Made by a program: the position numbers and the translations under genes
The notes under the pieces: model-generated
What the model was told of the DNA's origin: nothing
The model's input: the letters and a program-made list of their open reading frames with translations, nothing else
Databases searched by the model: none
Part shown: one piece after another, positions 6,917 through 24,557 of the stretch
Position numbering within the stretch: position 1 is the first letter of the stretch
Layout of the letters: every line of letters begins with the position of its first letter
NCBI GenBank assembly: GCA_963747695.1
Contig: CAVVFV010000010.1
Location: 197,618 to 261,617 of the forward strand
Length of the DNA: 64,000 nt
Direction of reading: 5' to 3'
Source of the DNA: Candidatus Falkowbacteria bacterium
Lineage (GTDB): Bacteria; Patescibacteriota; Patescibacteriia; Patescibacteriales; WJLG01

Positions 6917-8206
6917 CTATTCCTTTAAACGGCTTAATTTATCTTCCGCCTCTTTTATCTGTTCATCCTTGACTCTGGTGGCTAATTTATTATCAGCTAT
7001 TTCCTTCTCGTTATTAACTATATCTCCTGACTCGTAAATAGTCAGCAAACGGCTTTTGAGGATATTTCTTTCGTCCTTCAAGGCGTCAAGCTCTTTCATA
7101 ATGGCGGTTATTTTTTTCTCTTCATCCAATTCCCGAATGGCGTCGGCTGATTCTTCGCCCATATTCTGGATGCTGGCGATAAATCTGTCATTCGGATCTT
7201 TGCTCGTGGCCAAGCCATTCTTATCTTTTCCTTTCTTTTTTTTCATCCTCAAGTTGCCGCCATCGAGCCACGCGCCCATTATCTTATCCGAAGCCGTATC
7301 AAAATCGTCATCGTCATTAATCTTATTTTTTTCCGAAATATCCCCCATCAAAGCTTCATAAAGAGTACAGACGGCACCGCTCATCCAAGCATGGAAAACC
7401 GGCGTGATATTATTTTTTGAACATTCAGCGATCGCCTGGCGCATCGGCTTGGTTAAATGCGCTTTAACCACGGCATCTTCAATATTTATAATTTCTTTGG
7501 CTTTTTCATCGCGAAAAATCTTGTCATGAACCACCTCCAATACCTGATTGATTCCTTTTACCCCATCAGTTTCTCCCTCGATTATAGTTTGCGACTCGCC
7601 AGGGCAACCGAACTCATCGCCGGACTCGTGGATCATCGTCGCATCAAGGCCGAATTTCTTGGCCAGCGCCCCTACCGCCGGATCTTTCAAGACTCTGACC
7701 GGAATCTTAATATATTCATCGCCTTGCTCATGCTTGCCGCCATTCAGATTATTAGTACCTCTTAAAGCGTTCAAGTCCCAACTGATATAAAAAAATTTTT
7801 TTAGATCACTGATCGATGGTTTGCTTTTAAAAAGCTTTCTGATCATATCCTTGATGATCATTTTTTCAAAAGCCTTATTAGGCATCTTAAAATTATCAAG
7901 ATAGGCATCATGAACCTCCTTGGCTTCCGCCTCGGCTTCATTCTTCAAATCCGTCTCAGAAAGCCCCTTTGCTTTCAATCGATCGATCTTTTGCTGTACT
8001 TTTTCCTTAAGCTTTGACGGCAGATGGGCGCAATACTTTTCTACATAGTCATCAAGGTTCATTTCGCGCTTATCTTTCTCTCTTTGGCCGTCATCGGCTA
8101 TTCTCTTTTCGTAGATCAAATCAATCCGCTCTTGCAGTTTTTTTTCTTTTTCTAAGATGCTTTCTGCGGATTCCGCCTTAGCTTCATTATCATTGTTTTC
8201 TAACAT
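6917..8206 (-). CDS. coiled-coil protein with a divergent GGDEF-like (nucleotidyl cyclase fold) core
   Basis: WDLNALRGTNNLNGGKHEQGDEYIK resembles the GGDEF D.D.FK.iND..GH..GD block. HESGDEFG sits at the GGDEF position and VFHAWMSGAV at the SiG position. Flanks are K/E-rich. I prefer the ATG at 8206 over the TTG at 8272. Confidence 0.45.
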   Translation of the reverse strand: MLENNDNEAKAESAESILEKEKKLQERIDLIYEKRIADDGQREKDKREMNLDDYVEKYCAHLPSKLKEKVQQKIDRLKAKGLSETDLKNEAEAEAKEVHDAYLDNFKMPNKAFEKMIIKDMIRKLFKSKPSISDLKKFFYISWDLNALRGTNNLNGGKHEQGDEYIKIPVRVLKDPAVGALAKKFGLDATMIHESGDEFGCPGESQTIIEGETDGVKGINQVLEVVHDKIFRDEKAKEIINIEDAVVKAHLTKPMRQAIAECSKNNITPVFHAWMSGAVCTLYEALMGDISEKNKINDDDDFDTASDKIMGAWLDGGNLRMKKKKGKDKNGLATSKDPNDRFIASIQNMGEESADAIRELDEEKKITAIMKELDALKDERNILKSRLLTIYESGDIVNNEKEIADNKLATRVKDEQIKEAEDKLSRLKE

Positions 8207-21010: not shown

Positions 21011-21200
21011 TTTGAGGCTGGCTTTTCATCCCGCCCCAGTTTTTATATAAAATAATTTCACTATCCGCTATAATTATTTTTTGATAATTTATCGTCTACC
21101 CCGTTTACCAACAAAACTGGCGGCGGGATTATACGATCCCTTTCTCGCCTTCCCTCGCCCCTAGCGAGGGGCGAGGTCGGCTCAAAGGGCTTGCGTATAA

Positions 21201-21375
21201 AAAAGGGGAGAAGCCGATCATCGATCAGCCCTCCCCTGCTCAAAATGCGAAATCCTGAAAAGGAGTTGCGGAGCTCCCCGCGGAAATAAACCACCGTAAA
21301 AAGAGGTCTCGAACCTCATCAAGAGTCCGTTACCAGACTCAGGGATTCCATGGTGATCCTTCGCATTTTGAAAAA
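21201..21375 (-). ncRNA. candidate structured small RNA with its own intrinsic terminator (family unknown)
   Basis: On the minus strand, a 10-bp closing stem AAAATGCGAA/TTCGCATTTT encloses three hairpins, including a T-loop-like GAGGTTCGAGACCTC. It is followed by GGGGAG..CTCCCC plus TTTTTTA. No convincing ORF. Confidence 0.35.
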
Positions 21376-21645: not shown

Positions 21646-21680
21646 GCGGGTATCGTATATCGGTATTACCCCAGCTTTCT
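21646..21680 (+). pseudogene. degenerate copy of the 5' third of tRNA-Gly
   Basis: GCGGGTATCGTATATCGGTATTACCCCAGCTTT versus GCGGGTATCGTATAGCGGTTATTATGCCAGTTTT in the intact gene 96 nt downstream. Confidence 0.5.
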
Positions 21681-21741
21681 CCCCGCTACGCCGCGCGGCG
21701 CGGCTTCGGGGGACAAGCAAGCTTACAAAAACAAATAAACC

Positions 21742-21816
21742 GCGGGTATCGTATAGCGGTTATTATGCCAGTTTTCCAAACTGGTCATAGGGGTTCGACT
21801 CCCCTTACCCGCTCCA
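21742..21816 (+). tRNA. tRNA-Gly (anticodon TCC), CCA encoded
   Basis: GCGGGTA..CCAGT TTTCCAA ACTGG..AGGGG TTCGACT CCCCT TACCCGC TCCA. Confidence 0.9.
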
Positions 21817-23302
21817 AAGAGAAACAAGACCTATTTTCCAGAAATTTTTCACGCGCTTCGCGAAGCGAAGCGTAAGGTTTAATGGGCACAAATTGAATTT
21901 TTTTATCTTTCAAAAACAGGTTCGAGCCGGAAATTTTTACGGCTGAAGATTTTTTATCCAAAAGTGATGATGAAATGGCGTTTTCGCCTATATTTACTGC
22001 GTCTTTTATCCATTCCCGCATCGGTTCGAGCCAAACTATAGACCCTCTCTTAAAATCGACGATTTTCTCCTCCAGCGACTTCTTGCGAGAGAGAAGACTC
22101 GCCTTCTCCGTGAGGTATGCCTCGCGCTCTATGTCTTGGTCTAAATATGCGGTAAGAAGGCGCTGGAGCTTCGCCTCGATAGCTATAACTTCTTCTCTCA
22201 TCTCATGACTTACAGTTGCTGATAATTGGGCGGCCTCTTTTGCATCTTTGTCGGTCATTTTCAAGAGTTCTGCCGCCCAATCGGAAGGCATAGCATATTC
22301 TTTTAGGACATCAGTCAATTGCGCGATCAATTCCTTGTCTTTCATGTACGGTTGTGAGCAAGCCCCTTTCTTTTTGGTGCAGTGATAGTAAGTATATTCA
22401 TGGGTCTTGCCGGATACCTGCCTTTTTATCTTATGCTCAGCCGTAATGGAACAGCCGCACTCGCCGCACCTAAATAGCCCGCATAGCGGCTGAGGTTCGT
22501 TTTTAATCTTGTCGTGCGGTTTGCCGCGATCGGCAATCACAGCCTGCACGCGGTCAAATAATTTTTTGGAAATGATTGACTCGTGTGTGCCTTCGTAGAC
22601 TTCGCCGGCATATTGGAACAGGCCGCAATAAAAAATGTCGGATAATATGCGCGATATTCTGTCCCGCTTGAATATGCTTCCGGTGTCGGCGCGCACGCCT
22701 TTCTCCGCGAAGAACGCGGAGATATCTTCAAGCCGCGAGTTGCCCTTGGCGTAAAGTTCAAAGGCGGCAATCACCACCTTCGCCGTTTTTCTCTCCACGA
22801 TAATGCGTTTCGTCCGAACGTCGTTCAAGTATCCGAGCGGGGCGCGCGAAGGATATTCGCCTCTCTTAACTTTTTCGTGTAGTCCGCGTTTAGTGTTAGT
22901 GCTCAAGTCGATGATGAACTGGTTAGCCATGCCAAACTCCATGCTCATAACCAGCGTGTTGTCGGTCGAGCGATAGCTCCGGTCATGGGTTTGGATATGT
23001 TGGATAGTTCCCCGCTGTAAAAACCAGCTGATTTGTCCGCCGTCGATCGGATTGCGGGCGAGACGATCAAGTTTCCAGCAAACAATGCCTTGCGCCTCGC
23101 CTTTTTCAAGGCGCGAAAGCATCTCGCCAAATACAGGGCGTCCAGGTCTCTTGGCTGATTGTTTTTCGATAAACTCCTCAACGATATTCAACCCTTCGGT
23201 CTTGGCCAGCGCCCGCAAGACGGCCAGCTGATCGTCAATAGAACGGACTTGCTTGTCTTCAACGTCAGTCGATTTGCGGGCGTAGAGGAAATAATTTGGC
23301 AT
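21785..23302 (-). CDS. large serine recombinase (resolvase/invertase N-domain, recombinase domain, zinc ribbon and coiled coil)
   Basis: YARKSTDVEDKQVRSIDDQ carries the catalytic Ser motif; also WKLDRLARN and CGECGCSITAE..YYHCTKKK. The stop codon lies inside tRNA-Gly. Confidence 0.9.
   Translation of the reverse strand: MPNYFLYARKSTDVEDKQVRSIDDQLAVLRALAKTEGLNIVEEFIEKQSAKRPGRPVFGEMLSRLEKGEAQGIVCWKLDRLARNPIDGGQISWFLQRGTIQHIQTHDRSYRSTDNTLVMSMEFGMANQFIIDLSTNTKRGLHEKVKRGEYPSRAPLGYLNDVRTKRIIVERKTAKVVIAAFELYAKGNSRLEDISAFFAEKGVRADTGSIFKRDRISRILSDIFYCGLFQYAGEVYEGTHESIISKKLFDRVQAVIADRGKPHDKIKNEPQPLCGLFRCGECGCSITAEHKIKRQVSGKTHEYTYYHCTKKKGACSQPYMKDKELIAQLTDVLKEYAMPSDWAAELLKMTDKDAKEAAQLSATVSHEMREEVIAIEAKLQRLLTAYLDQDIEREAYLTEKASLLSRKKSLEEKIVDFKRGSIVWLEPMREWIKDAVNIGENAISSSLLDKKSSAVKISGSNLFLKDKKIQFVPIKPYASLREAREKFLENRSCFSLERVRGVEPL
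21812..21985. repeat. IR-A, left arm of a perfect 174-bp inverted repeat
   Basis: Exact reverse complement of 23754-23927 by manual alignment. Covers the last 5 nt of tRNA-Gly and 58 recombinase codons. Confidence 0.9.
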
Positions 23303-23404
23303 AAATTTTATATTTCAATATTTTTTAGAAGTGTTATAATATCTACACAACGATGACACATTTCCATTATAACGCTATTATGAAAAATAGTAAATAACTA
23401 CTAT

Positions 23405-23611
23405 ATGCCAAAGGGGTCAATTATTTCCGGGAATATAAAAAAATACCGAGCCAAACTCGGTATTTCTCAAGACAAGCTGTCGAAAATGTCCGGTGTCGAT
23501 TACAACACGATCATTAAAATTGAATCGGGCGTGACTTACAACCCGCGGGTTGAAACATTGAAGAATATTGCCGATGTTTTTAAAGTCGGCATTGATGATT
23601 TGATGAGATAA
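23405..23611 (+). CDS. XRE-family helix-turn-helix transcriptional regulator
   Basis: IKKYRAKLGISQDKLSKMSGVDYNTIIKIESG is a typical HTH_3. The gene is divergent from the recombinase. Confidence 0.8.
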   Translation: MPKGSIISGNIKKYRAKLGISQDKLSKMSGVDYNTIIKIESGVTYNPRVETLKNIADVFKVGIDDLMR

Positions 23612-23753
23612 AAATATGCAGACGGATAAAGAAACAAATAAAATTTATAAAGTCTTTGAAATAATTTTGGCGGTTGGGAGTTCGCCGTTTTCTCAACTCG
23701 GCGAAGATGCATAATGCGCGCACGGGATGGGCGGGGCAAGCATTATACAATTT

Positions 23754-23927
23754 GAAAACGCCATTTCATCATCACTTTTGGATAAAAAATCTTCAGCCGT
23801 AAAAATTTCCGGCTCGAACCTGTTTTTGAAAGATAAAAAAATTCAATTTGTGCCCATTAAACCTTACGCTTCGCTTCGCGAAGCGCGTGAAAAATTTCTG
23901 GAAAATAGGTCTTGTTTCTCTTTGGAG
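23754..23927. repeat. IR-B, right arm of the 174-bp inverted repeat
   Basis: Encodes the same 58 codons (ENAISSS..CFSLE) on the plus strand within ORF 23727-23972. Confidence 0.9.
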
Positions 23928-24557
23928 ACGCTAAGAAACGAAATCCGAACAATTTATACCCAAATTTCTTGACGCTTTCGCCACCTGTTCAACCCCTTAT
24001 CTACCCCGTTTGTTAGAACTCATCTTGGCCAAAACGGCGGCGATTTACCGTTTCCTCTGGCAACTATTGAAGCTAACCAATAATAAAGAAAAAAACAGGC
24101 TCCTACCTGTTTTTTCTTTTATTGATTGGGGTTGGGAAAAGTTTAAATCAAATTATCGAAAAAAGTGGGCGTTATGCTTTTTTTTGTTTTCCCAAAAACA
24201 AAAGCCTCATCGATGGTGGAAACAAGAATTGACAAATACCAATAGGTCTTCTTTCAAGAAACTGCGGACGAACTTTGTTCGCCGGCAATTTCTTGAAAGA
24301 AAGTTGCCGCCTGGCGATAGAAAAGAAATTCCTCGCTACTGTCGGGCGGACAAATTTGCCCTTAAGACTCCTCACCGGGAAACCGCGGCTCCCCGAAATA
24401 TCGGAATCAATAGAAAAATAATAGTCAAAATCTTGTTAGTTATCAATGAAGCTTTCTGATTATATTGTAGCAAAAAATTGCCGGTTAATAAATACCAAAC
24501 CTGACACTAACTTAAGCCAAAATATCCGGCTTGCCAAAATAAAATTTTGCCCCTATA

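Follow-up and report, generated by a model that had tools for sequence, protein, structure and literature searches.

A tRNA-targeting serine integrase module of Patescibacteria with attP inside the integrase gene and a candidate inverted spare copy of that site

The closest described counterparts of the locus reported here are the large serine recombinase (LSR) integrases A118/LI, Bxb1, phiC31 and SPbeta SprA, which have the same domain set, the same catalytic serine and likewise share a few nucleotides at their junctions. In the LI integrase system, the zinc-ribbon (ZD) motif lies 5 bp farther out in attP than in attB, and LSRs do not pair an attR-type hybrid site with attP (PMC3783163). The use of a transfer RNA (tRNA) or tmRNA gene by an LSR was called previously unreported in 2020, with 14 of 297 cases (PMC7192596). 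Here we describe an LSR gene that runs into tRNA-Gly(TCC) in a 64,000-nt stretch of DNA from Candidatus Falkowbacteria (contig CAVVFV010000010.1; hereafter the whole stretch is called the window), which an earlier note, made from the sequence alone, had pointed out as a candidate invertible or mobile cassette. We consider it rather probable that this locus is the integrase end of an LSR-driven Patescibacteria island with a conserved inverted spare attP, that RecA-type flipping rebuilds the native integrase in such islands, and that the copy in the window has been stranded.

In the window, nt 21812-21985 and 23754-23927 are exact reverse complements (174/174 identical), as the earlier note had found by manual alignment, and a repeat search stretches the inverted repeat (IR) pair to 182 nt at 98% identity. 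A perfect inverted repeat of 174 nt is impossible by chance within 64 kb, and the repeat is real. The first arm, IR-A (21812-21985), begins in the final 5 nt (CTCCA) of tRNA-Gly(TCC), the attachment target, which was mapped to 21742-21816 on the plus strand by ARAGORN (Rfam tRNA, 59.5 bits). IR-A covers codons 440-497, namely the 58 codons proposed before, near the 3' end of a 505-aa integrase gene (21785-23302, minus strand) that carries the Pfam domains Resolvase, Recombinase and Zn_ribbon_recom; it combines the P-type arm of a split attP with ZD-domain coding sequence. The integrase end reads ...ENAISSS...CFSLE and then RVRGVEPL plus stop, of which the last eight codons and the stop codon are antisense tRNA-Gly. 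The second arm, IR-B (23754-23927), is an inverted duplicate of codons 440-497. As the earlier note stated, it holds the same 58 codons on the other strand, followed by a 14-codon tail, TLRNEIRTIYTQIS, and a stop (23928-23972, plus strand). Flipping the segment between the arms in silico regenerates an intact recombinase open reading frame (ORF) of 511 aa with the swapped tail, in agreement with that note.

Homology searches revealed more than 5000 homologues of the window integrase, mostly in Patescibacteria metagenome-assembled genomes (MAGs). The locus sample compared below comprises 164 loci, which correspond to 149 distinct elements at 99% integrase DNA identity. In 102 loci (94 of the 149 distinct elements), the 3' end of the integrase gene has an inverted counterpart upstream of that gene, with arms of 44-190 nt (median 152) that are 81-100% identical to each other. 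The upstream arm lies 76-7239 nt from the integrase start with cargo in between, and in most loci with the repeat its outer edge maps to the same position of the integrase protein. Because it recurs in 94 distinct elements from independent assemblies, the inverted repeat is characteristic of the family rather than an artefact or an isolated case. The earlier proposal of a second arm that is maintained, as opposed to random debris, holds. A tRNA gene abuts the integrase 3' end on the opposite strand in 103 of the 164 loci, representing 28 isoacceptor types. In the alignment of the closest homologues, R9 and the catalytic S11 are invariant, and the C-termini past position ~497 are antisense-tRNA translations (GIEP..., IPIYDTR...), apart from a few that end in ...LYxxxRTYFxxN. 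A sequence search against the PDB matched the window integrase to the A118 and SPbeta integrases, the matches stopping short of the integrase C-terminal region.

Alignment of the junctions in complete relatives places attP inside the integrase gene at codon ~497 and attB at the tRNA gene's 3' end. Read in this way, the junctions show that insertion joins codons 1-497 to antisense tRNA, and that the native 14-codon tail goes to the far end of the island. In one such relative, L070, the order from the left is tRNA-Thr, ...cgt GAG, a tail copy on the plus strand (tail-P1) with ~150 nt, and cargo; on the right there follow an inverted copy of ~200 nt (tail-P2), CTC, arm B, the integrase with arm A, GAG and tRNA-Gly. 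The outer junctions of L070 are serine-integrase attL and attR with a 3-nt common core, and its excision would rejoin codon 497 in frame to tail-P1. A three-site pattern like that of L070, with cores of 3-5 nt, was found in L051, L069, L071, L078, L107, L131, L132 and L135, and nine relatives have attL as well as attR. Simple elements, with the distal junction but no inverted duplicate, are represented by L001 and L067, and L104 has both copies intact without a tRNA, which is the unintegrated configuration. Moreover, the sequences of L091 and L092 agree at 99.8% over the 2054 bp that lead to the core GTG; beyond it, tRNA-Arg follows in one and the native tail in the other. They are the same element with either tail, the natural tail swap stemming from integration and excision. 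The ends of the mobile unit in complete relatives are the tRNA junction and a distant junction of host DNA, core and native tail, rather than the arms. Of the cassette proposed in the earlier note, a mobile-element module at the tRNA stands, whereas the arms as its ends do not.

The DNA outside arm B encodes, in the integrase frame, a conserved tail (LYxxxRTYFxxNx plus stop) in dozens of divergent loci, with tail codons that vary synonymously (Leu TTA/CTA/TTG/CTC, Arg CGA/AGA/CGT, Phe TTT/TTC). In eight contigs, a full-length integrase is joined straight to a tail of the LYxxxRTYF type, which identifies the alternative tail on the IR-B side as the native C-terminus of the family. The swapped tail is therefore meaningful, as the earlier note had presumed, and the conservation of arms and tails that it suggested looking for is seen in the related loci. 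IR-B together with the native tail and the terminator forms an intact inverted duplicate of the attP region, which we term attP*. It comprises codons ~440-497, the native tail and the terminator, and is placed between the cargo and the integrase; in the window, IR-B corresponds to its P-type arm and the tail also to its P'-type half-site. The inverted copy includes the native tail in nine complete relatives, and the repeat continues for 160-255 nt past the core where this was measured. The finding that the earlier note named as a refutation, IR-B as the decayed 3' end of a second element copy, is half borne out: IR-B does copy the 3' end, but the copy is a conserved intact module without decay.

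Three other views of the tail or of attP were given up. A degenerate tail in the window was dropped, for L165 carries the same lineage variant (ALRNEIRTLFTINS plus stop). Descent of the tail-side half-site from a decayed tRNA 3' fragment was rejected on the constant +4 bp motif spacing and the conservation as a peptide. A folded single-strand attP in the style of CTX phage was rejected on mechanism, because a serine recombinase cuts both strands and would thereby leave the chromosome ends capped by hairpins. In the AlphaFold model of a native-tailed homologue (P0015), confidence is high to about residue 487 and low from 496; the model has long helices at 340-420, helices at 425-443, 447-458 and 477-487, and a hairpin at 462-471. 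As modelled, the arms encode folded protein, and the tail resembles a flexible peptide.

The geometry of the sites agrees with that of LSR integrases, in which attP half-sites have the distal motif displaced outwards by roughly half a helical turn relative to attB half-sites (4 bp in the family described here and 5 bp in LI). The motif TCGAACC falls in the T-loop and T-stem on the tRNA side and in the RT codons on the tail side, and in 47 of 49 loci the distance of its start from the repeat boundary is exactly 4 bp greater on the tail side than on the tRNA side. In the window, CCGAACA in attP* is 4 bp farther from the core than TCGAACC in tRNA-Gly. The core CTCCAAA (21812-21818), which holds the crossover, is identical in the empty attB of the relative L166, the tRNA junction of the window and attP*; this short core is what the window and the empty attB have in common, with no long direct repeats. 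In addition, the identical allele of tRNA-Gly(TCC) occurs without the element in L166. On this spacing, the T-arm and the acceptor 3' strand of tRNA-Gly would be a B'-type half-site, the tRNA junction looks like a P/B' hybrid (attR-type), and arm B with the tail looks like a true attP. Inversion catalysed by the integrase is disfavoured, since LSRs do not recombine an attR-type site with attP (PMC3783163). As expected for an LSR element, we found the catalytic, Recombinase, zinc-ribbon and coiled-coil parts of the protein, a short core, the half-turn motif shift, empty sites (L166 and L169) and a joined/unjoined pair (L091/L092).

In 87 of 95 loci, similarity within the arm pair exceeds that between orthologous arms of the locus and its nearest neighbour in the sample; in the window, for example, the arms are 100% identical to each other and 88% identical to those of L081. 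Arm B exceeds arm A in length by 6-13 nt in 42 loci, and where examples were aligned, these additional bases form a related TTTTGAATTT-like insertion at one shared point, inside the FGSNL codons. Because the arms evolve in concert, yet 42 loci keep extra bases in arm B only, the duplicate is ancient, and recombination in the form of gene conversion holds the sequence flanking the insertion identical to the working copy. Conservation within arm B is highest, in the aligned examples, in its outer portion as far as the core.

Comparison with three relatives of the host delimits what is left of the element in the window. L166 has the same tRNA-Gly and 5'-half remnant (described below), the terminator, a 2.4-kb region with methyltransferase and kinase-like genes, and LytR, with no element; in L169, the tRNA and terminator are followed directly by LytR, which makes it an empty site. 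In L165, the distal junction of a related element consists of the reverse complement of ALRNEIRTLFTINS plus stop, the core CTC and the terminator hairpin. Homology to L166 and L165 resumes at window positions 24187 and 24194, respectively, so that element-derived DNA in the window spans ~21819-24186 and extends 259 nt past IR-B. Compared to L165, L166 and L169, the tRNA terminator, the distal junction and the cargo are absent from the window copy, and a second copy of the tail was found nowhere in the 64 kb. The window copy thus does not have both the attL and the attR junction of a complete LSR element, and it cannot excise, because the cargo, the distal junction and the tRNA terminator have been lost. 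In the simplest reading of these alignments, a deletion would have stranded the integrase module of the window together with attP*.

The proposed mechanism starts from integration through the attP in the gene at a tRNA 3' end, which exchanges the last ~14 codons of the integrase and would produce the assembled orientation as the ground state. Rare RecA-type crossovers in the outer parts of the arms would then flip the integrase module and rejoin the integrase to its native tail, so that the native integrase is restored from the integrated state. Taken by itself, this flipping of the module by rare RecA-type crossovers is a tentative proposal that we hold to be possible rather than probable. 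The stronger statement makes the inverted duplicate of attP a flip device built into the element and driven by homology, which would rebuild a self-splitting ("suicidal") serine integrase gene in the integrated state, arm length then setting a low stochastic rate at which the native integrase returns and excision becomes possible; in our judgement this is somewhat unlikely. Several observations weigh against the mechanism and the reading built on it. A tRNA stands next to arm B in no locus, and the flipped state was not seen in the assemblies of the 94 distinct repeat-bearing elements; the eight native-tail contigs lack the repeat or the tRNA, or are too short to tell a free from a flipped state. 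The tail is predicted to be disordered in the P0015 model, and nothing points to a tRNA-tailed integrase being inactive or impaired. The existence of simple elements without attP* (L001 and L067) means that the duplicate is not essential, and concerted evolution needs gene conversion only, not function. Moreover, the set of tail codons was chosen by peptide pattern, which makes that test partly circular, and the relatives behind the inferred deletion in the window are only ~80% identical.

Some of these points would equally fit a non-functional passenger, in which IR-B is the 3' fragment of a second, opposite copy that persists through gene-conversion repair only. Concerted evolution would then be a mechanical result of homology, the elements without a duplicate (L001 and L067) look mobile, many B arms are frame-broken in their inner part, and the flipped state was not seen. 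We nevertheless regard a passenger as unlikely, in view of its retention by 94 of the 149 distinct elements, with arms that often share just 60-90% identity with those of the nearest other locus, its narrow size (44-190 nt, median 152), the inclusion of the native tail with a measured 160-255 nt past the core in nine complete relatives, and the strongest conservation being in the outer arm B up to the core. If attP* instead served as a second working attP, the circular element could integrate either way, and use of attP* would leave the integrase gene intact. The presence of both arms, the core and the P'-type motif spacing in attP*, and of both copies in the unintegrated configuration of L104, speaks for such a site, but its predicted product, namely a tRNA beside an orphan arm and an integrase with the native tail, was never seen among the repeat-bearing loci, which makes it quite improbable. 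The programmed switch suggested in the earlier note, in which the recombinase would invert the 1.77-kb segment through sites in the arms and toggle its own C-terminus by phase variation, would explain why the gene lies inside perfect inverted repeats and why a flip yields an intact ORF with a conserved tail. It is very improbable, as every assembly shows one orientation (no tRNA at arm B among the 94 distinct elements), the protein is an integrase-type LSR with attP/attB-type half-sites, an attR-type hybrid and attP are not synapsed (PMC3783163), the arms are separated by 76-7239 nt with cargo between, and an outward-regulated gene is not evident. An assembly artefact, or a transposon with terminal inverted repeats, is scarcely credible. 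Chimeric joins are often marked by inverted repeats that exceed the k-mer in length, and many of the family's contigs do break at the arms; however, 94 distinct elements assembled with many programs, very long contigs included, share this architecture, and an artefact was therefore rejected as the architecture is family-wide. Transposons with terminal inverted repeats or of the IS607 serine type were rejected as well, since the arms are not the element ends: element DNA runs 259 nt past IR-B, and complete relatives end at att junctions. We thus retain the island end with a conserved inverted spare attP, flipped by RecA-type recombination and stranded in the window, as the favoured reading.

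Between the arms, as reported in the earlier note, lies a gene of the XRE family (68 aa, 23405-23611, plus strand; HTH_3, E = 2e-15), divergent from the integrase. The two genes are separated by a control region (23303-23404), in which promoter-like hexamers occur on both strands (within the 23291-23411 gap); these are consensus matches only. A divergent XRE homologue is found less than 400 nt from the integrase in 48 of 154 loci. A terminator-like site follows the XRE gene (23668-23687, from the terminator scan). IR-B and the tail form an 81-aa ORF (23727-23972, plus strand) with no Pfam match. This ORF is unlikely to be a stand-alone regulator, as an insertion confined to arm B or a stop breaks the frame in many relatives, and from its sequence it is probably not a gene in its own right. 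The element DNA 3' of the tail ("Z", 23973-24186) reaches the right limit of element-derived DNA and holds a bidirectional terminator (24089-24116).

The surroundings of the element bear traces of other events. A 34-nt 5' half of tRNA-Gly (21647-21680), cut in the anticodon loop, matches the intact tRNA-Gly of L081 and L169 at every position; 61 nt separate it from the intact tRNA-Gly of the window, which differs from it in the 5' two-thirds (window region 21647-21741). We rejected this 5' half as part of the element, or as a sign that the tRNA travels along, because the element-free L166 is identically arranged (7078-7247); the shared arrangement thus predates the insertion of the integrase, and the 5' half is the trace of an older event at the anticodon loop. 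In L165 (140-520) and L166 (7290-7320), GGGAGTCGAAC units that look like the antisense of a tRNA-Gly T-arm are repeated downstream of the tRNA-Gly terminator. They sit in a 2.4-4.2 kb region with methyltransferases, an SKI-like kinase and a ParB_N-like gene that is absent from the window and L169, and may be remnants of earlier integrations at a hotspot. A strong hairpin (24249-24301; -35.6 kcal/mol, z = -5.3) upstream of the LytR/LCP gene recurs in L165 and L166, where its loop differs. This hairpin probably belongs to the host, as a structure of the 5' untranslated region or a regulatory structure outside the element; its conservation upstream of LytR in element-free relatives led us to drop the idea of a vestige of an older attP pair. 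In the lgt-tRNA spacer (21197-21267, minus strand), a sub-threshold Rfam match to the Rhizobiales small RNA Atu_C4 (34 bits, gathering threshold 80, E = 6e-4) is probably due to chance.

In the wider family, the cargo past attP* includes restriction-modification systems of types I, II and III, Dcm with Vsr, SNF2/PLD helicases, coupling ATPases of type IV secretion systems and SDH proteases. In place of a defence gene, the cargo of L070 (2092-4725) codes for a secreted protein of 877 aa that combines a peptidoglycan-binding domain with repeated Kre9/KNH-like Ig domains. One further contig, that of P0005 (ENA ERZ1426829), carries tandem LSR genes (501 and 554 aa) with an HTH_36 gene between them, beside rplS; the first LSR ends in the start of a native-type tail (SLYGT). 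A search of the viral contigs of IMG/VR found no close relative of the integrase, and a phage origin is accordingly not backed. A metagenome scan yielded no near-identical element (best 72-79%), and no other assembly of this genome was on record when its exact integrase sequence was looked up; a Logan contig of run ERR11748453 begins at 24085 and is silent on the orientation. Many MAG contigs start or end exactly at an arm or just past the native tail (L002, L012, L019, L022, L081, L095 and others): the integrase family systematically fragments short-read assemblies of Patescibacteria.

The family accounts for several annotation puzzles in Patescibacteria, namely integrases that run into tRNA genes, recurrent contig breaks, and orphan ORFs that duplicate an integrase end, and the analysis yields rules for delimiting islands that carry defence genes. 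It also points to a large clade of serine integrases that uses tRNA 3' ends, seemingly through recognition, at attB-type spacing, of the universal T-loop sequence. For integrase engineering, tRNA genes are of interest as conserved, multi-copy landing sites. If the spare attP does rebuild the split gene, the question of the suicidal integrase would become experimentally testable in bacteria, and a flip device, if real, would be a previously undescribed answer to the suicidal-integrase paradox that is widespread in Patescibacteria. In the literature we found no description of this Patescibacteria LSR family or of an inverted spare attP; as far as the literature was searched, the conserved inverted spare attP is undescribed.

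Compared to known LSRs, the family described here targets the 3' ends of many tRNA genes and has its attP within the integrase ORF, and no counterpart of its conserved inverted attP duplicate was found among them. The Hin/Gin/Cin invertases and the shufflons likewise combine a recombinase gene with an inverted-repeat segment, whose inversion would swap a C-terminal coding end. However, Hin, Gin and Cin are small (~190 aa), act on sites of ~26 bp with the help of an enhancer and have both orientations coexisting, and shufflons use a tyrosine recombinase, whereas here a 505-aa LSR is accompanied by arms of 44-190 nt in a single orientation, unlike a switch. The yeast 2-micron plasmid, with 599-bp inverted repeats recombined by the tyrosine recombinase FLP, similarly has two long inverted copies of a recombination site on a circular element with two invertible halves. 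In contrast to FLP, which recombines both copies, LSRs are not expected to join attP with attP. In mycobacteriophages with integration-dependent immunity, reportedly described by Broussard et al. in 2013, attP is said to lie in the 3' end of the repressor gene. There, too, integration alters the C-terminus of an element-encoded protein between the free and the integrated state, but that protein is a repressor whose lost tail is a degradation tag, and the integrase there is a tyrosine recombinase, whereas here the tail is that of the integrase. The "suicidal" archaeal tyrosine integrases of the SSV type likewise have attP in the integrase ORF, a tRNA target and a gene split by integration (PMC7253208). 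The integrase described here differs from them in belonging to the serine superfamily, in exchanging only its last ~14 codons with the ORF staying open, and in carrying a spare end.

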